DNA from: Candidatus Saccharimonadota bacterium
GTDB lineage: Bacteria > Patescibacteriota > Gracilibacteria > BD1-5 > UBA6164
Length of the DNA: 32,000 nt
Direction of reading: 5' to 3'
NCBI GenBank assembly: GCA_965229705.1
Contig: OZ245922.1
Span: forward strand, 510,001 to 542,000
The translations under genes and the position numbers were made by a program. Shown one piece after another: positions 9,441-32,000 of this stretch (positions within the stretch are counted from its first letter, which is position 1; each line of letters begins with the position of its first letter). Under the pieces are notes generated by a model. It saw only the letters and a program-made list of their open reading frames with translations. It had not been told where the DNA came from and searched no databases.

Positions 9441-9515
9441 GCTCCTATCGTCTAGTGGTTAGGACACAGGATTCTCATTCCTGGAACCGGGGTTCGATTC
9501 CCCGTGGGAGTACCA
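9441..9515 (+). tRNA. tRNA-Glu (anticodon CUC), CCA encoded
   Basis: Hand-folded cloverleaf. Acceptor GCUCCUA/UGGGAGU, D-arm GTC-TAGTGGTTAG-GAC, anticodon arm CAGGA-TTCTCAT-TCCTG, T-arm CGGGG-TTCGATT-CCCCG, discriminator A, CCA. Confidence 0.85.
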
Positions 9516-10943
9516 TTGCTGAAAATTAAGAGATTTTATTATCTCAAAGAGTTTACTTTCCTTTATAGTAAGCTCTTTTTTATTGTTTATAATAAGTTCG
9601 CATTGCATTGCTCTAATAATTTTTCATTTTTTCGCATCATCTCATTCTTTGTAGCTAACAGATAGGTTTTCTACAAGTTCGCATAAGTCTTCTATGATTT
9701 TTACTATATTATCATCTCATTGTTTTAAAGCTTTTTGTTTTTCTTCTAATTCTTGCTTTTTACAATCTAACTCCTCTTTTTTAATATCATAAGTCTTTTT
9801 ATCTATATCATTATCTAAAAGCTTATCTAATAAACTTGCTATTCTTTCATTTGTAAGATTTAATTCTTTTGTATTTCTTCTTATATCAGCTTCTCTATTA
9901 TTTACTTTATCTTTGTAATACTCTTTTAATGTAGCTTTTGATAATGCTATAAAAGGTTTTGGAAAATTGTAGTTTTCAATATGTTTTTCAAATTCCTTAA
10001 AAATCTTCTTTTGACTTACATTTATTTTATAAGATGTTTTTGCTCATCAATGGTAATATATATTTCCTTTTGTTTCATAAGGATATAAATTGTTTCATTC
10101 TGTATCCTTTAATATATTTGTAAAATATCTTGGTAAATCTTCTCTTTTATTATATTGAATAGCTCTTGTTACTCCATTAACCTTATCAAATAACTCTTTT
10201 GAAACAAGAGGTCTATATCAAGGACTATCAAGTAATGCTTCTTGTCATCAAAACTTTTGTAATCAATAGTATTTAGTATTTACAAGCATTTTTGATACTC
10301 TTTCACTATTCCATTTTTTACCTGTCTTTTCAGCAAGAAAATTTGCTATCTCTTGTAATGTTTTATTTTGACTTCTCATTATAAAAGATTTTAAAACAAG
10401 TTCAGCTTCTTCTTCTACTACTTGAATATCTCTTTTCCCTTTAGGTCAAACATTTTTATATCAAAATATAGCTTGAGATAACCATTGTCATCTATGTAAA
10501 GCTGTAATCATTTTAGCTTTTATATCTTTACTTCTATGCTCATTATCCATTTTAGATATTCAAAGCTCTAATAAAAGCATAAACTTTGCTGATATATCAG
10601 AAGCCTCAAACTTTTTATCTGTTGTTATAATACCTTTTATTTTATTATTATCTAACAATCAAATAATTAAAGCACTATCCATTATATTTCTTGCTAATCT
10701 TTTTGTTTCATCAATTATTATATAATCTACCTTTCAATTACTACAAGCTTCTATCATTCTATTAAATCAAGCCCTTTTTCATCAAGTTTTAGCACTTACA
10801 CTTTCTTGTATTTCATCTAACACCAATAAATCACCATTAGAAGCCGAATTTCTACAATTTTTTAATTGATGTTCTAAAGAGTTTGTTTGCCTATCCTCTC
10901 TATCAGTTGATTTTCTACAATATATTATTGCTGTTTGTTTCAT
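9459..10943 (-). CDS. large serine recombinase (integrase); 3' end overlaps tRNA-Glu antisense
   Basis: MKQTAIIYCRKSTDREDRQTNSLEHQ... (resolvase catalytic-Ser motif). ...VDYIIIDETKRLARN..., recombinase domain ...GYKNVGPKG...YYGLQKFGGQEALLDSPGYRPLVSKELFDKV, then a long coiled-coil region. The first in-frame TAA/TAG is at 9459-9461, inside the tRNA; checked codon by codon from 9722 down. Confidence 0.85.
9505..9528 (+). repeat. left copy of the element-bounding direct repeat (attL-like, overlaps the tRNA-Glu 3' end)
   Basis: 20 of 24 positions identical to 18395-18418 by my count. Confidence 0.55.
9546..9581 (+). terminator. intrinsic terminator after tRNA-Glu
   Basis: AAAGAGTTTAC-loop-GTAAGCTCTTT followed by TTTTT. 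The same bases are coding on the minus strand for the recombinase tail. Confidence 0.5.
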
Positions 10944-10985
10944 AAGAATAGTAAAAGTAAACTAAAAATTATCTTTAATTTTATT

Positions 10986-11010
10986 ATAACTACAATTGAT
11001 AAAAAATCAA
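10986..11010 (-). promoter_or_regulatory. palindromic box upstream of the recombinase (copy A)
   Basis: ATAACTACAATTGATAAAAAATCAA, 43-67 nt upstream of the recombinase ATG. 24 of 25 positions identical to 17439-17463. Core is ATTGAT-N5-ATCAA(T/A). Confidence 0.45.
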
Positions 11011-11034
11011 AAGAAAAAGAGGTTTTAACACCTC

Positions 11035-11157
11035 TTAATCCTCTAATATCATTGACCAAAAATTAAACATATCAATTCAAATTTGTTCAATTTCTGCATC
11101 TGTTAAGTGTGAAAACTCATTTCATAAAGCTTTCCTTATTTGCTCATTTGTAAGCAT
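11035..11157 (-). CDS. small ORF, 40 aa, unknown
   Basis: MLTNEQIRKALGNEFSHLTDAEIEQIGIDMFNFWSMILED with two TGA=Gly. Its stop overlaps the terminator hairpin AAGAGGTGTTAAAACCTCTT plus T-run (minus strand, 11013-11037). Confidence 0.3.
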
Positions 11158-11250
11158 CTTTTAACAGTTCATCAGAGGTCTTTATATGGTAGTAAAGTAT
11201 CTTTGATTTCTGTAAAAAGTCCTATATGGTAGTAGGTATATAAATTATAA

Positions 11251-12348
11251 TTATTTATCTTGTTTTTTCAATTTGATTTTCTCCTTGATTTTATACTTAT
11301 TGATATTTCAATTATGTATTTCAGTTTCAATTTTAGAAAATGGATATTTCTTTTTTAACTCAACAAATTTTTTATCATTTCATAAAATGTTTAAATCTCA
11401 TTCAATAAAACCTATTTTTCAATCATTATCCTTTAATAATGTAACTTTTATATAATCAGTATTTCATATAAGTTCTAATACCTCTTTTGGTATATCATTT
11501 TTAGTTATTTTTCTTTTTTCTAAAGAGTATTTTTCTAAATATTTCTTTATAAGTTCAGGATTGTATTTATCTACTAAAGGAGCAAATATTTTATTTAAAT
11601 TAAAGGCTAAAACAGGATAATCTAAAGTCTTTTCTAAATTTTCACCATTTACTATAAAAAAATCATTATTTTTATAATTGCATAAATATAATTTTTCTTC
11701 TAAAAATACAATACAGAATAACATATATTCTATTAAATAGTTTTTCTCTGTACTTTCACTATACTTAATATTTTTACTAAAATAATCTAAAAGAATTTTA
11801 TCATATTCTTGTTTTATAGCATTATAGCTTTCTTTATATTGATTTCTATCTCTTTTATCCTTTATCTTCCTATATTTTATATAATCTAATACCCCTCAAG
11901 ATAAAATCCTTTGTATTATATCATCAGAATTTAATTGTTTGTTTAATACATTTATAGCTATTTCTCAATCTCAATATTTATTCTTTTCTTCAAACTTCTC
12001 AATTATCTTATTATTCAATAATTTAAAAATTCTTCTCAATAGTCAAACACTAAGTCAAAATCAAACAAATTTTTCAATAATAAGTATTTTTAAATAATCC
12101 TCTATTCAAAGTTCTAAATTGTAATCATCTAAAACTACAAAATCAATATCAAATAAGTTCTTATAAGCTTGATAATCTATTAAAATTTCTTCTTCTAACT
12201 TCTTTCATTTTCTATCTGATAATTTAATTTTTTGCTCACCTAAAGAAAAGATTTTATAAATTTCTTTCTTTATAAAATCTTCGTAAATGATAATCTGTTT
12301 ATATTCAAAGAAAATACTCTTTTCTTTTTTAATTTGTTTATTGGTCAT
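11251..12348 (-). CDS. hypothetical protein, 365 aa, no recognisable domain
   Basis: ATG 12348, TAA 11251-11253, verified line by line; contains supplied ORF 11464-11724 in frame. Lys/Ile/Asn-rich. Starts 23 nt after the res stop, so probably co-transcribed. Confidence 0.6.
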
Positions 12349-12370
12349 AATAGATAAAGATAAAAGCTTA

Positions 12371-15001
12371 TTAAAACTTCTTAGTAAAAGTATTTTTAAA
12401 ATCTACTTCTAAATCTCTATTGTAAAATGGTAAACCTATTAAATAGTATTTTCAAAGGTTTAAATCTATAATTTGAGCCTCATCTTCAATATTTAATAAA
12501 AACTTTTGTTTCCATCATTCTTTTCAGTTTTCAAATCATCATTGAGCATCTTTAAACTCATTTCATTTAGGTTCAATAAATACTTGGTAAGTTATTGCTT
12601 CTTGCTTTCATTTCTCTTTCATAAATAATACAAAGTCTGGCTCAAATCTACCACCATCATCAAAGGAGTATATAGCAAAGTGTCTTTCATTTCTAAATAA
12701 GTAAATATCATCATATTTTTTCTTTAATTCATCAAATTCAATTTCAAATAAACTTAAAAAATCTTCTTCTTCTGAAGTAGCTACTATTTCACTAAATGTA
12801 AAGTAATCAGTATTTTTTTCTATAACTCTTTTACTTCAATCAATTTGTATAACTTTTGTTTCAAACACTTCTGCTAATGATTTTTCTTTAAATTCTTTTG
12901 TTCACTTATATTCTGTATTTTGTGAGGCTATTTCTTTTTCAAGTTTAGCTAAAACATTACTTACAGCATTGAGAAAAGACTCTCTATCAATTACTTCTAC
13001 TTTGTTTTTATCTCATCTAAAAGTAATTTCTACATCTCATAAAAGTCATTCTTCTTGTATGAAATTATCAATACTTTCTAATGCTCAGAAATATTTTTTT
13101 AAGTTAGAGAATTTATAAAATCTATTTTTATGTAATGCTTTTAAAACAATGATTTTATCAATTTCTGATACTTTTACAGTATCTATAATACCTAAATCAA
13201 TATTTTCATTTTGTTTACTCTTTGTATCTTCAAACAATACTTCTGTTCATCATCTACCAGTATAAATATTATAATCAAAAGATTTTTGAGTAATTCAATA
13301 TTTTTGAAAGCTTTTATAATCTCAAGTATTTACTTCAATTCTACTATTAACATATATAACAGAATTTTTTAAGAAAGTACTTATTTTATTATCTTCTTTA
13401 ACTTTAACAGTGAAAGGTGTTTTATCACTTTCATCTATCATACCAGTATTTTTCAATGCCTCCCTAATTTCAGAGATGTATTTACTATCATAGCTAGTAT
13501 GATAGTAAAATGTTTCAAGTATTTTTAAGTCATTATCTGTACCATCAAACTTTCTTTTGTATTTTTCTTCTCAAATAAAATTTTTATAAGTAAATGGATA
13601 ATATCTTGCTCATCTTCAGATCAGCTGTGCTTCACTCATAGTGCTTTTTCAAGGAGAGTATTTTCCATCTTTTTTCCAGTCTCAATCTCTTCATTCATAC
13701 ATTCTAACAATATCAAAAAGGTTTAATACATCCCATCACTCATTTAGCTTTTGAACAGCAAAAATCGCTCTTATTCTATTGTTTTTATCTTCTAAGGAGT
13801 TTAGTATATATTGTTGAGAAATTACTTCTTCTTTATCTTGTATTTTTATACTTTTCTTTTCTACATTTTCCTCATTTACATTTAAACATTTTTCTGGAGC
13901 AAAGTCATTTTTTAACTCATCTACCAATAACTCAAGCTTTATATTATTTTTTTCAAAGTATTTAAAAGCTTCAATCACAATATCTACATTTGTTTCATTT
14001 TTTACTTTTTCTAAATCTAATACTTTTAAGTTTTTTATTATATCATTAAAAAATAACTCATTTTCTTTACTTTCTTTAATCTCTTTTTGAGCTTTAAATA
14101 AAATAACTGGCTTACAAGAGATTTTATTGTTTTCAGCTACTTTTAATCTATATTGACTTAAAATAATTGCTTGTAAGACTCTTTCTTTTTGACTCAAATC
14201 AGTTTTAACTAAATCTACCTCTTTACTGTAGCCATCTAATCTAAATTGTTTTAAATCATATTTATATAGTATTTTTTCAGCATATTTTTCAGCTATATTT
14301 GGGTTTCTATCATCAATAGTAGCTGTAAACTCTAAAAGTAGGTTTCTAGTATGTTTATTTAATATTTTTAAGACTGTATACTCCCAAGATTTCTTTTCCT
14401 TTTTTTCATCAGTATTTAATTTTGATTTAGTTAAAGAATTTATATGATGGGCTTCATCAGAAATAATAACTACCTCATTATCATCAAAATCCTCATAGGT
14501 TATAGAGTTTTCTTTTGGGGTGTTTAAATCACTATGTAAACCTTGAATAGTAGTAAATTTTATTTGTATATCTTCTTTGTTGTTAGATGTAAAATTTTCT
14601 ACTTCTTTTATATGTACTGTTTTATCTCCAAGTCTTATTTCTTTTCAAAATAAGTATTTATTTGAAGCATCATTTAGAAAGTTATCCTTTGTTTTTTCTA
14701 TAATGTTTTTTGAATTAACAAAAAATAGAAAGTTTCTATATCATTTTTCATATAGGTATAATATTATTCAAGCCATTATAAAAGTTTTTCAACTTCAAGT
14801 AGCCATATTGAATAATAAGTGTATTGGTACTGATTTATTAGGATAACTTGAAAAATAATAAAAAAACCTTGAGAAAGCTTCTATTTGGTAAGGTCTTATA
14901 GTAAAACTTTCTCTTATATTGTTTTTTACAAAGTCTGGTATTTCCTTTGAGATAGCACCAACCTCATTTAAAGTATCAAATTTTTCATATAAATTTGGCA
15001 T
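12371..15001 (-). CDS. res: Type III restriction endonuclease, Res subunit (SF2 helicase + C-terminal PD-(D/E)xK-like nuclease)
   Basis: TIRPYQIEAF, LLFNMATGSGKT (Walker A, both Gly are TGA), VVIISDEAHHI (DEAH), QKLNEGWDVLNLFDIVRMY. C-terminal GGRFEPDFVLFMKEKG...YQVFIEPKG. Continuous from 15001 to TAA 12371-12373, checked codon by codon. 876 aa. Confidence 0.85.
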
Positions 15002-15006
15002 TTGTT

Positions 15007-15264
15007 TTACTGGTTACTATTTTTTTTATTCTTTTTAGCTTGACTTAAAGCACTTCAAGCAATTGATTTTGATTTCTTACTAGTTCTTCAATCTCTTAAA
15101 ACACTAGATGCTTTTGATGCTACTTTTTTTGAAGTTTGTTTTTTTGTTCAAGTTTGACTCAAAGCACTTCAAGCAACTGATTTTGTTTTTTTTCAAACAT
15201 TATCTTTTTTTAATTTATTTGAAGAAATTTTTGCCACCTTTTTTGAAGTTTGTTTTTTGTTCAT
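15007..15264 (-). CDS. small highly basic protein with an internal tandem duplication, unknown function
   Basis: MNKKQTSKKVAKISSNKLKKDNVGKKTKSVAGSALSQTGTKKQTSKKVASKASSVLRDGRTSKKSKSIAGSALSQAKKNKKNSNQ (85 aa). Starts 11 nt after the mod stop and ends 6 nt before the res ATG. The duplication is also visible at DNA level. Confidence 0.55.
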
Positions 15265-15274
15265 AAATTTAAAA

Positions 15275-17200
15275 TTAATTATAAAAATTATTATTGAGTT
15301 TTATATCCTCATCAGACACTTTATTATTTTTATCTTCTATTTCACTATAATTTAGATATAGCAAGTTTTTATCTAATATATCTATTAAAAAATCTTTTTG
15401 TTCTTCAATACTTAGAGCTTTAAAATCTTGAATACTATTATCTATATCACTCACATTTACACTATAATTTATAAATGCACTTTCCTTTATTTCTCACCAT
15501 ATTTTTAATAAACTCTCAGTATTCTTTGCTTTACCAATCATTGATATATAGGACTCATTTTCTTCAATCATTTGCATATATATAAATTCACCTCATCATT
15601 TCCATTTAAAAGCCTTTGTTACTCATCATTCTTCTCAGTCTATAACTTTTTTTAGTCTTTCTACTGCAACATCTTCAATATAATCCATTTGTTCCACTCC
15701 TATATATTGTCTTCACATTTTATGAGCAACTGCACAAGTAGTACCACTTCACAAATGATAATCCATTATTATATCTCATTCTTGAGTTACTGCTTTTATT
15801 AAGAATGCAACTAAACTTTCAGGTTTTGGGAAAGATGGAAAATCTAATTCTAGTGAGTCAATATGCTTTTTAGAGTCTTCATTTGTATCAACTCAGATTG
15901 ATTTATTTAGATAATTATTTTCTACAAACTTTTCTGGAGCAATATTTGAAGCACTTTTCCTTTGGTATCTAATAGAAAACTTTTTAGTTTTTATTAGAAA
16001 ATAAGTTCAATCTTTAACTTCTTGGTCAAAGTTCTTTTGACTCCATTTAAATTCTCACTTAATTCTTACAGAATTTTTATTTAATCATTCTTGCACTATT
16101 AAATCATCCAATAGTTCTATTCTGTCATAAGTTCATTTTTTATATTCTCCATCAGGTATATTAAATCTAATTTTTTCTTCTGGAAATAACAAAGTTCAAA
16201 TATTATTTCAGCTATTTAAAAGAGGAGCATCACAATTTTCACTTTCTTTTCACTTATATGATACAGATAACTTAACTTGTTTTTCATAACAATGTATAAA
16301 TTCCCAACCTCACCTTGTTTTTCAAGATAATGTTGGCGAATTATCAGTATTTTTCCATATAAAAGTGTCTATAAAGTTTGTTTCTTTAAAAATTTCATCC
16401 ATTAAAACTTTTAGGTACCCTTGTTCATTGTCATCACATTGAACAAATATAACACCATCATTACTTAAAAAATCTCTAGCAACTTCAAGCCTATTTTTCA
16501 TAAATGTTAGCCAAGTAGAATGATTAAATCTATCATTATACTTGAATGTATCATTTTGTGTATTATATGGAGGGTCAATATATATAAGTTTTACTTTTCA
16601 AGCAAACTTTGATTTTAATGAGTGTAAAGCTAATAAGTTATTTCATTTTATTATTAAATTATCTTTTATATCTCAATTTTCATCTTTCTTAAAATTTTCT
16701 AATTTATGTTCTCAATCTTTATCAATTCTCTTAAAATTTGTAAATATTTTTTCTCATAATAAAACATCTATTTCATCACTTCACAAAATATCATTATAAA
16801 ATACTTCTTCTCTTTTACTATCTTCTTTATCTTGACCTCAAGCTAAAATACAATCCTTATAAGCCCAAGCAAGAGAAATTTCATTACTCTCAGCTAAGTA
16901 TTCTCAATTTTTATTTATAAGTCCTATTTTGTTTTTATAAGAAGTATAACTATCTGGTAAAAATTGTTTATTATCTACAAATCTAATAAATTTGTTACTA
17001 TCAAAAACTTTTACATCTTTTATATCAATAAAAAACTTACTTCTTGTTATTTCATCATCTAGTAACAAAGAAATTAAGTTTTCATCTAAGTTATATGCTA
17101 ATTCTTGTATTTTATTTTTTAATAAATCTCAATCTTGAGAAATTAGCCTATCATCTTTTTTAAGAATATCATAAACTGTATTCAATAAGTTATTACTCAT
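15275..17200 (-). CDS. mod: Type III R-M DNA methyltransferase, Mod subunit
   Basis: AYKDCILAGGQDKEDSKREEVFYNDIL, KVKLIYIDPPYNTQNDTFKYNDRFNHSTWLTFMKNRLEVARDFLSNDGVIFVQCDD, FPKPESLVAFLIKAVTQEGDIIMDYHLGSGTTCAVAHKMGRQYIGVEQ. 641 aa, TAA stop. Confidence 0.85.
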
Positions 17201-17203
17201 TTT

Positions 17204-17407
17204 TTATTTAGTTAAAGTAAATAAATCATTTGGCTTACATTTTAAGCCTTTTAGAAGCTCTCAAATTGTTTCAAAGCTTATTTTAGTAGTTCTCCCTTCT
17301 TTTATATTCCAAAGTTGTTGATAGCTTAAATTTACTTCTTTTTCTAAATCACTCAATTTCATATTTTTCTTCTCAAGTAGGGCTTCTATATTTAGTTCTA
17401 CTTTCAT
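17204..17407 (-). CDS. XRE/Cro-type helix-turn-helix regulator (controller-protein position of the R-M operon)
   Basis: MKVELNIEALLEKKNMKLSDLEKEVNLSYQQLWNIKEGRTTKISFETIGELLKGLKCKPNDLFTLTK (67 aa). Ends 4 nt before the mod ATG. Paralogue of the ORF at 30904-31131. Confidence 0.75.
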
Positions 17408-17438
17408 ATATTTTATATTACATACTAACTTTCTTAAT

Positions 17439-17463
17439 ATAACTATAATTGATAAAAAATCAA
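17439..17463 (-). promoter_or_regulatory. palindromic box upstream of the XRE gene (copy B)
   Basis: ATAACTATAATTGATAAAAAATCAA, 32-56 nt upstream of the HTH ATG. Contains the perfect inverted repeat ATTGAT-AAAAA-ATCAAT (17448-17464). Confidence 0.45.
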
Positions 17464-17474
17464 TCTAAAAATTA

Positions 17475-18077
17475 TTACATTGTTAAATATTGCTTTTCTA
17501 TTTGATAAAGTACCTCTAAAGGTATATCTCATCTCATAAGTTTTAAATACCTTTTATATTTTCTTGTTTCTTTTCAATTCCTAAACTTATATTTAATTGT
17601 TTCATATAATTTTTCAGCCTCATACTCATCAGGAAAGACCTTATCAAAATCTCTCCACCTTTTACTCCTTCTTTGCTTTTCATAACACAATCCTAAAGTT
17701 TCTCTACTTGCAAAAATTCAATTATTTTGAAGATACAAAATACTACATCTATTTCAATTACAAGGACATAAAAACCACCATCTAACACCTCAATAATTAC
17801 AAGCTGTTGAAACTAAAGGTATTTTATAATCAAGCTCCTTCTTCTCTCAATTAAAATTTGTTTGAGTAAAAAACACTCTTAAATATCATCTATTTCCTCA
17901 TTTTTCTACTTCTACTCAAATATTTCAATTATCTTCTCAATTCCTTTTCCAATAAAGTCATCATCTTTGATAAGTCTTTCATTTATCTAAATATCAATAT
18001 TTCTTTAAAAATTTAATATCTATTGTTTTTGAATAATCCTCTACACTATCCTTTCAAGTTCAATATATCCTTCACAT
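17475..18077 (-). CDS. conserved-hypothetical-like Zn-ribbon protein, 200 aa
   Basis: ATG 18077, TAA 17475-17477. ...STACNYGGVRWWFLCPCNGNRCSILYLQNNGIFASRETLGLCYEKQ... has four Cys spaced as a Zn ribbon. By my hand count about 18 of 21 Gly are TGA, so the gene is invisible to a standard-code ORF finder. Confidence 0.6.
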
Positions 18078-18394
18078 AAATCTATAAATTAAGTATTAAA
18101 ACCGAAATCATTAAGCTGTAAGCCCTTTTTTACTCCATAAACTACTTTTCAAATATATAGTTTTTAGCTTATTAAAGAGATAAATCCTATTTTTAGTTTT
18201 TGGAGTGTTTATAAACTATCTATTTACATACTTATCATTATTAAAAGGTAATCTATAATTAAATCTTATTTCCCTAAAAATAGGGATAGTCTTATATTAA
18301 AACTTCCCTTAATCATTTAACTACATTTTCAGTATTTTTTTGATTTTTACTTACATATTCAAATAAGCCTCAAATTGTTAGCATTCACCTATTA

Positions 18395-18418
18395 TGGGAG
18401 TACCAAAATTGAAAATTA
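18395..18418 (+). repeat. right copy of the element-bounding direct repeat (attR-like, orphan tRNA-Glu 3' fragment)
   Basis: TGGGAGTACCAaaatTGAAAATTA, 9 nt before the nudix ATG. Confidence 0.55.
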
Positions 18419-18426
18419 TAATAAAC

Positions 18427-18921
18427 ATGCGTACTGAACTTTTAGATTTTGTAGATGAAAATGATAATGTGTTATGAAGAGCAGAGAAGCATGAGATATA
18501 TTCTAAAAAACTCATAAATAGAATTTGTCATGTAATAGTTATAAATTCTGAGTGAAAAATTGCACTTCAAAAAAGAAGTCAAACAGTCAGTTTTATGCCA
18601 TGAGCATGGTCTACCTCTGCATGATGACATGTATCTTCATGAGATGATTATGAAACTTCTGCAAAAAGAGAACTTGAAGAAGAAATTTGAGTCGTCTGAG
18701 ATTTAGTTTTTGTAGATAAAGTCCTATACAGAAATATAGAGAAAGAATATTTAAAATTTTTATGAGTTTTCAAACTGGTATATGATGGGGATTTTTCTTT
18801 TAATGATTGAGAAGTTGAATCTGTAAAATGGTGTTCTTTAGACGAGATAAAAAATATGATATATTGATGAGAAGAGTTTCATCCTGAACTGATATTTATT
18901 TTAGAGAGGTATTTTTTCTAG
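18427..18921 (+). CDS. NUDIX hydrolase
   Basis: MRTELLDFVDENDNVLGRAEKHEIY...SAGGHVSSGDDYETSAKRELEEEIGV (Nudix box). 164 aa, TAG stop. Confidence 0.85.
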
Positions 18922-19044
18922 ACTAACAGCCTAATAAAGATAATATCCTTGTTTATGAGCAAGGGGGAAATACAGTTTTTTCTAACTATGATTTTATGGT
19001 TTTTGCCTTACTAAAGATTTATTTTGATAAGAATTGGTACAATC

Positions 19045-19635
19045 ATGTCTAAGATAGTTATTGATATTGTCCTGCTTCCAGACAATGGAATACAAAAAAT
19101 TTGTAGAGAGGTAAATAAAGCTATTTGATGAAAAATAGATTTTACCAATACAGGAAAAACACCTCATATTTCTCTTCTTATGGGAGCTGTAGAAGAATCT
19201 CAGCTGAAAGAACTCAATCAAAAGCTCATAAATATTTCTCAGAAGTATTCTAAAATATCACTTACTGGAAAACTAAAAAACTATACTATCAGAGACACAG
19301 GAGAAACATTATACGCGTATGATCTTGAAAAAAATGCAGAAATACTCAAAATGTTCACTGAAATATCTACAGAAATCAGACCTATACTTGAATACGAAAA
19401 TATTTCTACAGATATGTTTTATCAGCCTGAAGAGGTCGAGGAGCAGAGTATTGTATGGGTAAAGTGATTCCAAAATAGAACCCCTGAAGAATATTCTGGT
19501 CATATTACTCTTGGAATATGAGAATTGGATGGAGAGTCTGCAAATATGATACATTTTGAAGCCCTAAAAATTGCTGTATATCAGCTTGGAAATTATGGTA
19601 CTTGTGATAATCAATTATTTGAAATAGATTTATAG
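19045..19635 (+). CDS. 2H phosphoesterase superfamily protein (LigT/2'-5' RNA ligase-like)
   Basis: Two H-x-(S/T) motifs, TPHISLL and SGHITLG, about 110 aa apart. 196 aa. Contains supplied ORF 19180-19467 in frame. Confidence 0.65.
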
Positions 19636-19648
19636 CTACATAATAACT

Positions 19649-20206
19649 ATGAATAAAAAAGCACTTATTTGTATCGATTTCATCAACGAAATCATGCACC
19701 CTCAATGAAAACTCTCAGGGAAAGGATACGTAACATTTGCACAGGAAAATAACTCTATTACGAATATTCAAGCTCTTTTAGAAAAATATCGAAACGAAGA
19801 TACAGAAATTATCCACGTACGAGTTTGTTTTGATGCTGAGTATTCAAATCAACTAAAAAACTCTCCTCTTTTTGGGAAAGCTCATGAGTTTTGAGTATTA
19901 CAAGAAAATACGTGGTCTACAGAATTTTTAGAAGAACTCAAACCTCAAGAAAATGAAAAGATGTTTATTAAAAGAAGAGTAAGTGCTTTTTTTGAAACTG
20001 GACTTCATGAACACTTACAGTCTCAAGGTATCTCAGATATTACTATTATTTGAGTAGCAACAGACCTAGCAGTTGAATCTGCTGTGAGGGATGCTCATGA
20101 TAGGGATTATAATGTGAGTGTCATAGCTGATTGTTGTGTTGCTGCAAATATGAAAGACCATGAGAAGAGTGTGAATTTTATGGGCAAGATAGCAGAAATA
20201 ATATAA
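19649..20206 (+). CDS. isochorismatase-family cysteine hydrolase
   Basis: KKALICIDFINE..., FIKRRVSAFFETGLHEHLQSQGISDITIIGVATDLAVESAVRDAHDRDYNVSVIADCC. 185 aa. Confidence 0.85.
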
Positions 20207-20211
20207 TAACT

Positions 20212-20604
20212 ATGATACAGCTTTCAAAACAACAAAAAGATATGCTTTGGTGAGAAAATTGACCTTACTCTGAAGCAAAACTGACATATGAAACACGTAT
20301 TTTAGACGATGAAATTTCAAGACAGTTCATAAGTGTGAGTGTAAATATCAATCCTACCACCTATGAAATCTGTAAACAAAATGTGGAAGTATTTTCAAAA
20401 AATCTTCTTGTCTCTCAGCTGATTGAACATGCAGAAAATAATTGAGTACATTTCTGATACGAAGCCTCGGCTTTTTCAAAGCCATTTACACCACAAACAG
20501 AATGACAAGTTTTAGAGGAAGCAAAAATTGCTCTTGAATATTCAAAACAAACTATTGTTGAAATGCACCAATTTGTGATGCAGTTTCTTGATATAAAGAA
20601 GTAA
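20212..20604 (+). CDS. hypothetical protein, 130 aa
   Basis: Open frame with five TGA=Gly and a TAA stop, tightly packed after the isochorismatase gene. No recognisable motif. Confidence 0.5.
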
Positions 20605-20645
20605 AAATGTGATATCTTATAGTGGTATTCCAATTTTTCACCCCC

Positions 20646-20810
20646 CTACTCTCCACTCAAAAGCTCTTCTATCAAAGCCCGTTCTTGGGGAGTGAGTTGT
20701 ATATCATCTGGAACACTCTGATCGCCATCTCCAGCTATTTGCTGGTTTATATGAGATGTACATCATGCAATGAATAAACAAAAGATACAGAAGAAAAATA
20801 TGTGTTTCAT
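20646..20810 (-). CDS. small lipoprotein, 54 aa
   Basis: MKHIFFFCIFCLFIAGCTSHINQQ... is a signal peptide plus lipobox F-I-A-G-C. The lipobox Gly is a TGA codon. Confidence 0.5.
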
Positions 20811-20865
20811 AAAGATGAATAATATGCTATTGATAGTCCCTCTCATAAAATATATTTGTACTTTC

Positions 20866-20997
20866 TTTAAGGAAGTTCTGAGAAACTCCTTTTTTCTCTC
20901 CTTTTCCAAAGGAGAGATGGCTCGATAGAGACAGAGAGGATTAGAAAATTTTTGTTTTTCAGAGGTTCCTTAAAGGAGTTTTTCAGAGATTCCTTAA
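20866..20997 (+). repeat. MITE-like structured repeat, copy 2
   Basis: TTTAAGGAAGTTCTGAGAAACTCC-TTTTTTCTCTCCTTTTCCAAAGGAGAGATGGCTCGATAGAGACAGAGAGGATT...TTTTCAGAGGTTCCTTAAAGG, with an extra partial TIR copy at its right end. Confidence 0.6.
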
Positions 20998-21310
20998 CGC
21001 CGAAGACCAATATTTCTTGAAGAGCAATAAGTAACGCAAGAGTATGTATATCGCTTTGCGCTTCATACTGAATGAGGAGTATTTCTATCTTTTGAAGTAT
21101 TTTTTGCTTTTGTTCTTGATTCAAGTTCTCAATCACTCATCCATATCCTTGCTCTATGAGATAGATGTATTCTGACTTTTTCTCTCAAAAATATGATGAC
21201 TGGTACACTGCTCCATCTCAAAAATCCATATGATAATGCCCTGTGTCATGAGCATACGAAACACTCATTAAAAAAACAATACACAACAAAGAAATACATA
21301 TATTTTTCAT
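20867..21310 (-). CDS. secreted hypothetical protein, 147 aa; C-terminal ~45 aa encoded by repeat copy 2
   Basis: MKNICISLLCIVFLMSVSYAHD... (signal peptide). ...EQGYGGVIENLNQEQKQKILQKIEILLIQYEAQ..., then reads through the repeat to TAA 20867-20869. Confidence 0.45.
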
Positions 21311-24902: not shown

Positions 24903-25040
24903 TTGAAGAACCTCTGGGGAAGTTCTTTTTTCTCTCTTTTCAAAAAAAGAGAAGAATCTATTTTCCCCTCCCTTACCAAGGGAGGGGTGAGGGGAGGGTT
25001 ATATATTCTAGAGATGCCTCAATAGAGCCAGAGAGGATTG
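24903..25040 (+). repeat. MITE-like structured repeat, copy 3, with a nested GC-rich insert
   Basis: CTTGAAGAACCTCTGGGGAAG...TTCTCTCTTTTCAAAAAAAGAGAAGAA...[CCCCTCCCTTACCAAGGGAGGGGTGAGGGGAGGG]...GAGATGCCTCAATAGAGCCAGAGAGGATT. The right TIR is degenerate. Confidence 0.5.
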
Positions 25041-29413: not shown

Positions 29414-30922
29414 TTATGCGCCCGTAGCTCAACTGGATAGAGTAGTGGTCTTCGAAGCCATTGGTTGGGGGTTCGAATCCCTCCGGGCGTACCATTTAAG
29501 ATTATTGAAAGACTTTATAGTCTCAAAGAGTTTGTTTTCCTTTATAACAAGCTCTTTTTTGTTGCTTATAATAAGTTCGCACTGTAAAGCTCGTATTATT
29601 TTTCACTTTTTCGCACTATCTCAATTTTTATAGCTCTCTTGCAAGTTTGTTACGATTTCGCACATATCTTCAATGAGTTCTATAATATTATCCTCTCACT
29701 GCTCAATAGCCTTTCTTTGTTCTTCTAAATCTCTTTTTATCTCCTCAAACTCTTTCTTCTTCCTTTCATAAGTATCTTTATCTATAGAATCTTCCAGAAA
29801 CTTATCTACAAGACTTTCACTTTTTTGATGATTCTCTTGAGCCTTGAGTGTATTTTGGCGAAGTTTTTGCGTCTTTGATTGTACTTTATCTTTATAAATA
29901 TCCTTAAGCGTAGCTTTTGTCAGTCTTATGAAGGGTTCTGAAAAGCTATAATCTCAAAGCATTTCTCAAACTATATCAAATAGTTTATTCTCACTGATGT
30001 TGATTTTATGCTTTGATTGAGGTGTTGTATGATAATATACATACTTTTTCTTTTGAATATATCCTGAGAGCTTTACTCCGTCTTCATCATAAAGTATGTT
30101 ATCAAAATACTTAGGAATTACGCTTTTTGAATAACTTATTGCCTTTATACCATTTACTTTCTCAAAAAGCTCTTTCGATATAATAGGTTCATATCATGGA
30201 GTATTTATAAGAGCCTCTTGTCATCAAAACTTTTGAAGTCCATAATACTTCACATTCCTTAACATATTTGAAACTTTCTGACTGTCCCATTTTGTACCAC
30301 TTTCAGAAGCCAAAAACTCGGCAATAGGTTTAAGAGCTATCTTTTGACTCCTCATTATAAAAGCCCTTCTTACCAAATCAGCCTCTTTTTCTATTACTTC
30401 TATTCCTTTACTCCCCTTTTTAATAGTTATATTCTTATATCCAAAAGGAAACTTAGAAAGTACTTTTCAAGATAAAAGAGCTGTCTCCATATTCTTTTTT
30501 ACCTTTTTACTCCGAAGAGAGTTATCAAGCTTCGCCATTCATAACTGTTGCCATAACATATTGATGGCAAAATCATCTTCTGAGCCTATAAGTCTTCCAT
30601 TTACATATAGTCCTTTTATACTTCAAGAACGAAGCATAGTAGTAAAATTTGCTGTATCTATATCATCTCTTGAGAGTCTGTCTGCTTCGTCAATGATTAT
30701 GTAGTCTACTTTTCAACTTTTTCAAGCTTCTAGTAATCTCTCAAAGCCCTTCCTTGTACCTGATTCTTTCGCGCTCACGCTTTCAACTATTTCATCTAAA
30801 ACAATAAGTTCAAGACTTGAGGCAAGGTCTCTACACTTTTTTAACTGCGTAACATGAGTATTTTGCTGTCTTCACTCTCTATCAGTCGATTTCCTACAGT
30901 ATATTATTGCTGTTTGTTTCAT
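29414..30922 (-). CDS. large serine recombinase, paralogue of 9459-10943; ORF reads antisense across the whole tRNA-Arg
   Basis: MKQTAIIYCRKSTDREGRQQNTHVTQLKKC...VDYIIIDEADRLSRD...YYGLQKFGGQEALINTPGYEPIISKELFEKV..., then a coiled coil. The first in-frame TAA is at 29414-29416; checked codon by codon from 29650 down. Confidence 0.8.
29418..29494 (+). tRNA. tRNA-Arg (anticodon UCG), CCA encoded
   Basis: Acceptor GCGCCCG/CGGGCGU, D-arm GCTC-AACTGGATA-GAGT, anticodon arm GTGGT-CTTCGAA-GCCAT, T-arm GGGGG-TTCGAAT-CCCTC, ACCA. A TTTACT-17nt-TATAAT promoter-like pair lies just upstream. Confidence 0.85.
29525..29560 (+). terminator. intrinsic terminator after tRNA-Arg
   Basis: AAAGAGTTTGTT-loop-AACAAGCTCTTT plus TTTTT. 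Nearly the same sequence as the terminator after tRNA-Glu. Confidence 0.5.
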
Positions 30923-31131
30923 GCTTCGTTTTGCTCAATTTTAAAAAGTTGATTTGGAGAACATTTAAATGCTCAGAGGAGTCTTCATATTGTCTCAAAC
31001 TCTATTTTTACCGTCTTTCATTTTCTCATATTCCATAATGCTTGATAACTAATTCATGTTTCTGATTCAAGCCATCTAAGATTTCTATTTTTCTTATCAA
31101 GAAGTGATTGTATATTCAGAAAAACTTTCAT
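30904..31131 (-). CDS. XRE/Cro-type HTH regulator, paralogue of 17204-17407
   Basis: MKVFLNIQSLLDKKNRNLRWLESETGISYQALWNMRKGKTVKIEFETIGRLLGAFKCSPNQLFKIEQNEAGNKQQ (75 aa). Its 3' end overlaps the recombinase ATG by 19 nt. Confidence 0.7.
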
Positions 31132-31217: not shown

Positions 31218-31238
31218 ACTCTAAATTGGAGTACTTTT

Positions 31239-31604
31239 CTATCTATGCTCGTCAGCTCCATGCATCTCTACATCTTCTCCATCATGAAATTCTTTCATAT
31301 GTTTTTCATCTTCTGTCATTTCATCATGGTTCATCATTTCCTTATCATCTTCTATCATATGAGAGTCGTCTGACATATCCATTTTTGAATGGTCCATACT
31401 ATCTGAACCATGACCCATCTTTAAATGGTCTTCAATAGTCATGTTCATTCGAGCAGCAGCGTCTTTTTGCTCTTTATATTCTTCAAGCGAAAGACCGTAT
31501 TTTTCTGCTTGCTGTGACTCTGTAAGAGGTGCTTCTGTTTTTCCACAAGATACAAGACCAAGTGAAAGAATAGCAATAAGACCGATAATAATAATTTTTT
31601 TCAT
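31239..31604 (-). CDS. Met/His/Asp-rich lipoprotein (candidate periplasmic metal-binding protein)
   Basis: MKKIIIIGLIAILSLGLVSCGK (lipobox LVSC). The tail is HLKMGHGSDSMDHSKMDMSDDSHMIEDDKEMMNHDEMTEDEKHMKEFHDGEDVEMHGADEHR. The N-terminal extension of supplied ORF 31239-31766 is not credible. Confidence 0.65.
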   Translation of the reverse strand: MKKIIIIGLIAILSLGLVSCGKTEAPLTESQQAEKYGLSLEEYKEQKDAAARMNMTIEDHLKMGHGSDSMDHSKMDMSDDSHMIEDDKEMMNHDEMTEDEKHMKEFHDGEDVEMHGADEHR

Positions 31605-31698
31605 AGTAATATGATAATAAAATAAAAAATATAATAGTTTCTTGATATTCACTTTATGGAGGAATGCAAGAATAATTTTTGTCATACATAGGAAAATT

Positions 31699-32000
31699 TT
31701 AAGAATTAGTACATCTTTCACGAAGATAAGAAAACAATATCGGAAGTATAAAAAGTGTGAGAACAATAGAGCTAATAAGTCATCCTACTACCACTATTGC
31801 AAGTGGTTTTTGAAGTTCTGCTCAAGCCCCAGTTGCCCATATCATAGGAAGTAGTCCTATAATAGAGGTAAAAGCTGTCATAAGTATAGGTCGGAGACGA
31901 AGCATTGCTCCACTTACTACTGCATCGTGAATATCGTTTTTTGAGATTTTTACTTCTGATAGTTCTGCATTATCAAGAGTCTTTTCATCCATAAGTGGAA
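31699..32000 (-). CDS. RND heavy-metal efflux pump, CusA/CzcA family, C-terminal fragment (5' end beyond window)
   Basis: ...[64 protein letters not shown], TAA at 31699-31701. Confidence 0.8.

Follow-up and report, generated by a model that had tools for sequence, protein, structure and literature searches.

A 32,000-bp window of contig OZ245922.1 (positions 510,001 to 542,000), the whole stretch of DNA analysed here, very probably carries a defence island of 8,890 bp, integrated by its own large serine recombinase (LSR) at the tRNA-Glu(CTC) gene of a Gracilibacteria genome that uses genetic code 25 (UGA=Gly). The first-pass annotation of this DNA had proposed an LSR-driven island at tRNA-Glu that is bounded by a repeat of the tRNA 3' end, and this proposal was borne out by the anatomy of the element, by two related loci (L092 and L001) and by a homologous recombinase (P0007). 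The target gene, the recombinase and the arms of the two attachment (att) sites are arranged as follows:

9441-9515, plus strand: tRNA-Glu(CTC), intact and with an encoded CCA, the integration target (ARAGORN and Rfam).
9505-9515, plus strand: attL core, TGGGAGTACCA, comprising the 3' strand of the acceptor stem, the discriminator and CCA.
9459-10943, minus strand: LSR, integrated form, 494 aa, whose last 14 aa (GESNPGSRNENPVS) are antisense tRNA.
9516-9545, plus strand: P' arm of the att site, in which the TGAAAATTAAGAGATTTT motif is located; the opposite strand encodes recombinase residues ...IIKSLNFQQ.
9546-9581, plus strand: hairpin and T-run on the tRNA strand, with stem 9546-9557/9567-9578 and T-run 9576-9581 (TTTTTT).
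18292-18394, minus strand: P arm, read only in the circle, where it supplies the C-terminal 33 aa of the excised-form recombinase (NRGMLTIGGLFEYVSKNQKNTENVVKGLREVLI) and its stop.
18395-18405, plus strand: attR core, the displaced 3' end of tRNA-Glu.
18406-18426, plus strand: B' arm on the host side, with TGAAAATTA at 18410-18418 and no native terminator; the ATG of a NUDIX gene is at 18427.

The sequence TGGGAGTACCA is present in two exact copies in the window (9505-9515 and 18395-18405), that is, the attL and attR cores are identical at 11/11 positions, and the span between the copies is 8,890 bp. With two copies in the window, the repeat is not the common genomic repeat that would have spoken against an island. 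It had been drawn as a 24-nt repeat (9505-9528 and 18395-18418), and whereas the two copies stand, the duplicated core is restricted to the 11-nt block; the second shared block, TGAAAATTA, also occurs twice in the window, both times 4 nt past the 11-nt core. The NUDIX ATG, thought to lie about 12 nt after the tRNA end, is instead separated by 21 nt from the displaced end at 18405. In sister elements (see below) the duplicated core measures 9 nt, and the block of identity in L001 corresponds to the inner 9 nt. A crossover inside the last 9-11 bp of tRNA-Glu, (TG)GGAGTACCA, is strongly supported, the terminal 9-11 nt of the tRNA gene being supplied by or shared with the element, and a dyad-symmetry search of the att sites points weakly to a centre at the GA at 9508-9509. 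The TGAAAATTAAGAGATTTT motif of the P' arm recurs at an equal offset in L001, L002, L092, L093 and L097, and it is also found in L156, a tRNA-Cys element whose LSR is merely 30% identical. At the other border, DNA homology to L001 ends at 18414.

The interval between the cores differs in composition from its surroundings, with an abrupt change at the proposed borders, whose absence would have spoken against an island. All element ORFs (open reading frames) are on the minus strand and GC content in 9.5-18.4 kb is 0.20-0.27 versus 0.33-0.41 in the core flanks, in agreement with the strand bias and AT-richness reported earlier; GC content of the element is 0.24 versus 0.377 in host core genes. 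As had also been remarked for the cargo, most glycines are encoded by TGA (115/152 Gly codons or 76% in the element, versus 104/277 in host core genes). With TGA as a sense codon the window contains 76 ORFs of at least 100 aa, compared to 15 under table 11. The TGA codons of the recombinases (this LSR and a second one described below) align to Gly in 34/102 cells of standard-code homologues, against a background of 5.6% Gly, and are never opposite Trp, while the single TGA in the gene for ribosomal protein L11 falls on an invariant Gly. On the basis of these alignments and of the L11 glycine, the host is therefore a code-25 organism, and the nearest genomes retrieved all carry the label Candidatus Gracilibacteria.

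The recombinase, which had been described as a serine recombinase of about 494 aa at the tRNA-proximal end, is indeed encoded at 9459-10943 and matches the Pfam domains Resolvase (PF00239, 1.4e-20) and Recombinase (PF07508, 1.2e-10, residues 177-257). Its size (494 aa integrated, 513 aa excised) is inside the LSR range of ~450-700 aa, residues Y8, R10, S12, D14, D78, R82 and R85 are invariant across an alignment of 52 homologues, and sequence matches in the PDB include 3g13 and the TP901-1 N-terminal domain. The domain search suggested in the first-pass annotation succeeded for Resolvase and Recombinase and failed for Zn_ribbon_recom (PF13408), which the LSR does not match and whose conserved cysteines are absent from the 52-homologue alignment. 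An AlphaFold2 (AF2) model was made of a family member, P0037, chosen because it is free of TGA-to-W artefacts (predicted local distance difference test, pLDDT, 83). The model aligns over its full length with the LSR-att complexes 9y66 and 9dxh (E ~1e-20), followed by Bxb1 (1e-17), PhiC31 (2.5e-15) and the LI integrase 4kis (9e-11), and it places beta-hairpins at 277-309 and long helices, forming a long coiled coil, at 310-408. The predicted fold thus points to a genuine LSR with a cysteine-less zinc-ribbon-like domain, in which the zinc ligands have apparently been lost. No tyrosine recombinase was found in 9.5-18.4 kb, the sole recombinase being serine-type. A role as an invertase in phase variation of the mod gene was ruled out, as the repeats are direct and at a tRNA gene and the cargo of sister elements differs.

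Related loci argue that the element moves. First, on a 1,357-bp ENA contig (L092), 1,282 nt that span the element arm and the recombinase are 96.7% identical in DNA to the window element, whereas the tRNA-Glu body left of the core matches at only 51/64 positions and has an additional indel; host-specific sequence gives way to element sequence inside TGGGAGTACCA. Because the tRNA gene diverges far more than the adjoining mobile DNA, the same element must reside in two host lineages. Second, the complete sister element L001 (9,635 bp), whose LSR is 82-87% identical, corresponds to the window element at both ends (9441-12361 and 17204-18414) and carries other cargo, namely a Type IIG methyltransferase/nuclease, KilA-N and others, with the Type III system absent. 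The L001 attR reads ...cacctattgTTGGAGTACCA, then aaagagaaac..., then a hairpin and T-run, and the sequence past it is exactly what trails the tRNA at unoccupied sites in relatives. Third, synteny of L11 and tRNA-Glu(CTC) extends over ~25 Gracilibacteria genomes, in 13 of which the site is unoccupied and a native terminator directly follows the tRNA. Relatives with the same gene order and no repeat, which would have argued against insertion, were not encountered; many have L11-tRNA-Glu and then the native terminator. A full LSR abuts tRNA-Glu in L002, L016, L030, L037, L093 and L189, and L012, L034 and L027 have remnants of an element only. Repeats of 9 nt ending in CCA, each with a displaced native terminator, also bound further elements, including L126, L148, L156 and L188 and among them three tRNA-Cys elements of 5.2-9.3 kb, so that an intact tRNA gene (tDNA) and a displaced direct 3' fragment flank an integrase gene in the window, L001, L126, L148, L156 and L188. 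A repeat search did not find the attR of the L186/L095 and L189 elements.

Two side observations concern the occupancy of this site. In L027 (OZ245768.1, a complete chromosome) positions 11784-11921, 1.3 kb downstream of an 'empty' tRNA-Glu, hold a pseudogene of the element's regulator HTH67 with an in-frame stop, which is a relic of a decayed element. In L189 (1-20603, GCA_017973835.1) a tandem array occupies L11-tRNA-Glu, a full element being followed by a second recombinase element with SMODS (CBASS-like), an S24 peptidase, SocA_Panacea and another unk200-like gene; the L11-tRNA-Glu site is an accretion hot spot.

Several points weigh against our interpretation. Neither an exact empty site nor a junction read was obtained for the source species, and the NUDIX gene is non-syntenic, its homologues being at most 71% identical and none of them next to L11 or tRNA-Glu. 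The dyad symmetry of the att sites is weak, and no recombination directionality factor, replication or transfer function was recognised in the element. The missing empty site, junction reads and excision factor, along with the clear stub that constitutes a second element in the same window and the decayed copies in L012, L034 and L027, could mean that the recombinase inserted the element in the past and that the element has since become a fixed, vertically inherited defence locus. We consider such an immobile remnant highly improbable: the recombinase is complete and retains all its catalytic residues, the cores are still identical and the reading frame in the P arm is open and conserved, the 96.7%-identical copy in a different host implies recent transfer, and the composition is un-ameliorated (GC 0.24 versus 0.38).

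The right border adds its own complications, as the attR of the window is without the native terminator that other elements have there, and the P'-type motif TGAAAATTA is on the supposed host side of attR, a pattern otherwise seen only at attL junctions. This border may have a more complex history. In a compound arrangement, the element would have entered the attL of an older sister element that has since been mostly deleted, a scenario that we hold to be rather unlikely, as we do the accompanying notion that the stretch at 18.4-21.3 kb, AT-rich and without synteny (NUDIX, isochorismatase and others), is what remains of the older element. Such a history would fit the right flank (GC 0.32, 50% TGA-Gly, no synteny in relatives) and has a precedent in the tandem array of L189. 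However, no recombinase remnant or second tRNA fragment was found downstream of the right border, and the B' arms of other elements and the empty sites share GAAA or AAAATTA at the offset of the motif, which fits half-site recognition. The interval in question (18406-21310) encodes the NUDIX protein (18427-18921), an unannotated protein of 196 aa (19045-19635), an isochorismatase-family protein (19649-20206) and, on the minus strand, a small secreted protein (20867-21310), and may be an older-island remnant.

Returning to the LSR-driven defence island, its remaining features are:

10981-11018, minus strand: promoter-like site, copy 1 (TTGATT, 16-nt spacer, TATAAT), upstream of the LSR (repeat D9 and promoter scan).
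11017-11036, minus strand: terminator-like hairpin past orf40, between orf40 and the LSR promoter; sister elements have an equivalent.
11035-11157, minus strand: orf40, 40 aa, a backbone protein that is always immediately upstream of the LSR.
11251-12348, minus strand: unk365, a 365-aa protein without functional assignment; its C-terminal ~85 aa are conserved in sister elements (tblastn).
12371-15001, minus strand: Type III restriction endonuclease (Res), cargo (Pfam ResIII 1.8e-31; PADLOC REase_III 6e-129).
15007-15264, minus strand: KS85, an 85-aa K/S-rich repeat protein (phrog_5079, a family of unassigned function, 5e-31).
15275-17200, minus strand: Type III methyltransferase (Mod), cargo (Pfam N6_N4_Mtase 4e-43 and TypeIII_RM_meth 6e-21; PADLOC MTase_III 3e-177).
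17204-17407, minus strand: HTH67, a 67-aa protein of the Cro/C1-type helix-turn-helix (HTH) class, backbone regulator (Pfam HTH_26 1.4e-11).
17434-17471, minus strand: promoter/palindrome copy 2, upstream of the HTH-mod-res operon and 87% identical to copy 1 (D9 and promoter scan).
17475-18077, minus strand: unk200, a 200-aa Cys-motif protein that adjoins attR.

Res and Mod are encoded by adjacent genes, as in Type III restriction-modification (R-M) systems, and both PADLOC matches are near full length; KS85, between mod and res, holds an internal 114-nt duplication (direct repeat D4). Around this cargo is a backbone composed of the LSR, orf40, the C-terminal domain of unk365, HTH67, the duplicated promoter and palindrome, and unk200. 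The identity of orf40 amounts to 67-80% in L001, L002, L093, L095, L097, L098 and L099, a higher conservation than that of the LSR, and the protein has no match in Pfam or in any other database searched. Its position alone makes it a candidate directionality factor or cofactor. HTH67 is 80-90% identical in L001, L095 and L097 though the cargo differs, and a paralogue with 58% identity is encoded beside the second recombinase of the window (LSR2). The promoter-like site upstream of the LSR contains the palindrome TTGAT-N5-ATCAA (10996-11010), which recurs in copy 2 at 17449-17463. This module is kept upstream of the LSR in L001, L002, L097 and L098, and copy 2 is kept in L001 and L097, and HTH67 probably binds the shared palindrome. 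No match for unk365 was found in Pfam, PHROGs, NCBIfam, PADLOC or the PDB. Similarly, unk200 matched no family in protein-family searches and its AF2 model (pLDDT 84) matched no fold in the PDB or BFVD, yet it is 73% identical in L001 and has 71 homologues, some of which are carried by small plasmids in other phyla, and its family is one associated with mobile elements.

The non-genic P arm between unk200 and the displaced tRNA end measures 317 nt. In the equivalent region of L189 (~9,520-10,000) short, iteron-like direct repeats are present, with CATTACTTAG in five copies, and GTTAGCATT-like motifs occur in L188 (~9,520-10,000) and in the P arm of the window (18360-18394). These iteron-like repeats near attR may be protein-binding sites.

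The cargo of the sister elements consists of Type I R-M with Abi_C and HEPN, Type IIG, an N6 methyltransferase, BstA-like with a C5 methyltransferase and HNH, and SMODS in the tandem neighbour. It is strongly supported that the family represents modular small defence islands, in which a conserved integration and regulation backbone frames swappable defence cargo. A phage origin of the element, as a satellite or a temperate-phage remnant with a phage integrase and prophage-borne R-M genes, was weighed against this interpretation. Its LSR matches phrog_95 (annotated as an integrase) and KS85 a PHROG, size classes of 5-10 kb resemble satellites, and the wider LSR clade takes in IMG/VR contigs (L179-L183) in which the LSR ends at tRNA-Lys or at a fragment of a tRNA. 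On the other hand, Pfam and PHROG searches matched none of the element proteins to capsid, terminase, tail, lysis or packaging genes, and the called genes of six complete sister elements include no capsid, terminase, tail, lysis or replication genes. With close relatives absent from virus collections and a cargo uniformly made up of defence genes, we judge a phage origin very unlikely. Nor did family searches match the element proteins to a relaxase, oriT, coupling protein or type IV secretion system.

As the defence island is presently integrated, its recombinase ORF crosses the core (TGG TAC TCC CA = W Y S H), continues antisense into the tRNA for 57 nt and ends ...WYSHGESNPGSRNENPVS, the 'ESNP' at the recombinase end being antisense T-arm. 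This extension into the tRNA is an addition to the first-pass annotation, as are orf40, HTH67 and the recombinase at tRNA-Arg. In the reconstructed circle, by contrast, the ORF runs into the P arm, from 18394 down to 18292, for 33 codons, resulting in 513 aa for the window element as well as for L001. A natural 514-aa homologue, P0007, shares its 9,883-bp contig with an unk200 homologue. Its alignment with the ORF obtained by joining 18405 to 9516 is end-to-end, with 69% identity and the same stop. Because P0007 matches the joined ORF end to end, the reading frame of the circular junction exists in nature, and the circular form that had been predicted thereby receives indirect confirmation from a sister recombinase with exactly the ORF that the junction would create. 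In three other reconstructed elements the ORF is also open across attP (shuffle tests of the open frame, p ~0.04-0.26 each, ~0.01 combined). Furthermore, recombinases from tRNA-less loci and from protein databases measure ~515-530 aa and have a conserved tail, ...IRTF..LS.IDLEEL.EF...; the free-form tail reads ...VVKGLREVLI in the sub-clade of the window and ...LSxIDLEELxEF... in others, and is conserved and amphipathic.

A replacement of the conserved 33-aa C-terminus by 14 antisense-tRNA codons upon integration is thus strongly supported, and modelling predicts that the tRNA-derived tail is disordered. We tentatively propose, as an idea with more odds against it than for it, that the tail swap might be an integration-dependent switch of recombinase activity, stability or directionality. 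The full-length form would then drive attP x attB recombination, and the truncated form would be silent or need orf40 for excision. If true, one short DNA segment would be att half-site, protein C-terminus and antisense terminator at the same time.

The terminator in question is the hairpin and T-run on the tRNA strand of the element arm (9546-9581), whose 12-bp stem is antisense within the recombinase codons KKELTIKESKLF. It was missed by a general terminator scan that allows loops of at most 8 nt, since its loop has 9 nt. As the ungapped register differs among long-stem hairpins, we scored each sequence separately for a hairpin of -8 kcal/mol or lower that ends within 3 nt of a T-run, with equal-length windows on the antisense strand of the remainder of the same genes as controls. 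Terminator-like hairpins were detected in 26/36 element arms versus 4/377 control windows, and pairing in register holds for 95% of the cells of the close clade, compared to 37-65% with a slid register. Two inner pairs switch fully, from A-U to G-C (6:5) and from C-G to U-A (6:6), and these switches alter amino acids and do not track recombinase relatedness. Distant members have wholly different, longer stems that end in a shared ...AGCTCTTTTTT, and native terminators are located at the equivalent place in unoccupied sites and displaced attR flanks. We regard it as likely that the arm hairpin is a replacement intrinsic terminator or insulator for tRNA-Glu.

What weighs against a terminator is that the hairpin overlaps conserved coding sequence and that, in the close clade, double changes are confined to 2 of the 12 stem pairs. 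Because protein constraint acts on the same codons, the evidence is partially confounded, and the hairpin and T-run could instead be a by-product of recombinase codons (KKEL...KLF) or part of a recombinase binding site. The KKEL...KLF segment is the last beta-hairpin of the zinc-ribbon-like domain, where the AF2 model indeed puts a beta-hairpin, and the 3' half of the stem and the T-run coincide with the invariant K456 and L458. We nevertheless give this explanation limited credence: the inner stems differ wholly between sub-clades yet pair (TAC/GTA, TGT/ACA, TTAAATAG/CTATTTGA and TATATAG/CTATATA), their changes alter amino acids (T to V, S to N), and the enrichment of hairpins is ~70-fold over the remainder of the same genes. 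As for a binding site, the hairpin is 31-66 nt from the core, past the typical LSR half-site of ~25 bp. A terminator is also what the empty sites have at the same position.

The following sequence of events would account for the present arrangement. It is strongly supported that the LSR recombined attP with the 3' end of tRNA-Glu(CTC), with predicted junctions ...cacctattaTGGGAGTACCA joined to ttgctgaaaatta... for attP and ...ttccccgTGGGAGTACCA joined to aaattgaaaattataataaacATG... for attB. The tRNA gene remains intact at attL because attP carries the same terminal nucleotides, and the original tRNA 3' end has been displaced to attR. The native terminator would thereby be shifted 8.9 kb away, with the arm hairpin and U-run presumably taking over termination or insulation. 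HTH67 might repress both promoters via the shared palindrome, and orf40 or the lost C-terminal tail might govern the direction of recombination. Transfer from cell to cell would depend on something outside the element.

We asked how common tRNA targets are among related recombinases by means of the homologue alignment, with which 87 further loci were collected from metagenome and virus collections. A locus was scored positive when the start of a tRNA on the opposite strand was between -60 and +150 nt relative to the projected end of the recombinase. Such a tRNA was present at the LSR 3' end in 44/64 evaluable loci versus a background of 1.6% per equivalent window, whereas a same-strand tRNA was seen at the LSR end in 0/64 loci. 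The first-pass annotation had called an LSR at a tRNA gene unusual, which is correct and yet understated, since the whole LSR clade targets tRNAs. The clade uses 22 tRNA species, and because some of its members' hosts are without in-frame TGA it is not confined to code-25 lineages. Four viral contigs hold relatives with tRNA-Lys or a tRNA-Lys fragment at the same position: in the TGA-recoded L180 and L182 (IMG/VR, ~11,420-11,470) a fragment similar to the 3' portion of tRNA-Lys comes after the recombinase stop, and in L179 and L183 a full tRNA-Lys is beside the related recombinase. The two pairs look like attP and attL forms, respectively, of temperate phages of UGA-recoded hosts. A single-protein scan of IMG/VR returned no relatives, and isolated phages gave only distant matches (<31% identity, N-terminal half). 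In the literature searched, no paper was found that joins Gracilibacteria or Patescibacteria with serine recombinases, and the later TIGER and Integrase-On-Demand papers report no class of tRNA-targeting LSRs. The LSR clade specialised for tRNA 3' ends is widespread and apparently undescribed, and large catalogues of LSR-att pairs could hold such pairs unremarked.

The element LSR resembles PhiC31, Bxb1, TP901-1, A118/LI integrase and TnpX/TndX in domain order and in the catalytic Ser/Arg set, as well as in the short identity core of attP and attB and in having the recombinase gene beside attP. Unlike those LSRs, it belongs to a clade that targets tRNA 3' termini throughout, its attP is inside the recombinase ORF, with the C-terminus rewritten on integration, and it is without zinc-ribbon cysteines or a Zn_ribbon_recom match and is found in UGA=Gly Gracilibacteria hosts. 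The filamentous phage PhiRSM reportedly integrates with the 3' end of tRNA-Ser as attB, by means of a serine recombinase that is small and resolvase-like (Askora and colleagues, 2011); that enzyme is said to be a small (~200 aa) phage resolvase type, whereas here an LSR of ~500 aa is encoded by defence islands that are non-viral. In archaeal integrases of the SSV1 type attP is within the int gene, which is split on integration, and in the integration-dependent immunity of mycobacteriophages attP is reportedly in a coding sequence whose repressor product loses a degradation tag (Broussard and colleagues, 2013). These systems rely on tyrosine integrases, while here it is a serine recombinase that loses a conserved 33-aa tail. 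With mobile defence islands and integrative mobilizable elements the window element has in common a conserved backbone and variable anti-phage cargo; unlike the mobilizable elements, it has no recognised relaxase, oriT or mobilization gene, orf40, unk365 and unk200 being without known family.

Integration at tRNA genes is usually credited to tyrosine integrases. This rule, which is built into biology and island-finding software alike, is overturned by an LSR clade that targets at least 22 tRNA species. Short sites suffice for serine integrases, and host factors are usually dispensable to them. The conserved tRNA end, as a natural attB, offers a landing site in Gracilibacteria and other Patescibacteria, lineages without genetic tools, and because tRNA ends are conserved the LSR could be usable across wide host ranges. 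The element also illustrates how collateral damage may be limited, with the tRNA restored, the terminator replaced and the state of integration possibly sensed via the recombinase tail, and how episymbionts with reduced genomes exchange defence cargo on a modular platform. P4-like/Islander islands, which have tyrosine integrases, consist of an intact tDNA at one end and a displaced, direct 3' fragment at the other, with the integrase gene next to the tDNA and an attP that restores the gene (PMC4383910). Our element shares this genomic signature and differs by its serine enzyme and by a duplicated segment of only 9-11 nt (acceptor 3' strand and CCA); it has the intact tDNA and displaced fragment of the Islander definition without the tyrosine integrase.

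The window contains a second, reduced element with a recombinase of the same kind:

29414-31131, minus strand: element 2, at tRNA-Arg(TCG) (29418-29494, plus strand).
29414-30922, minus strand: LSR2, 502 aa, 52% identical to the first LSR, with an ORF that is antisense over the whole tRNA-Arg.

Element 2 (repeat D1) has the same hairpin and T-run at 29525-29560 and an HTH67 homologue at 30937-31131. No orf40, unk365 or unk200 was found in it, nor a far repeat inside the window, and its composition is host-like (GC 0.32, 52% TGA-Gly).

Three further observations pertain to the DNA around the two elements. A DUF87/TraG-like P-loop ATPase is encoded just upstream of L11 (6668-8551, plus strand), outside the defence island; as a candidate island gene it was ruled out, being syntenic in relatives without the island, and since Gracilibacteria conserve it at that place (74-86%) irrespective of the island, it is a host gene and no transfer module. 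Palindromic motifs of 26-38 nt (AAAGGAGTTTCTCAGAGGTTCCTTAA and relatives) occur in host intergenic DNA at 1086-1111, 20948-20997, 20867-20904 and 24903-24940, and look like a shared bidirectional terminator or an element of the repetitive extragenic palindromic (REP) type. Directly after the element 2 stub (31234-31992, minus strand), a His/Met-rich lipoprotein adjoins the C-terminus of an RND (CusA-like) transporter, and this could be a metal-efflux locus, either of the host or as cargo.

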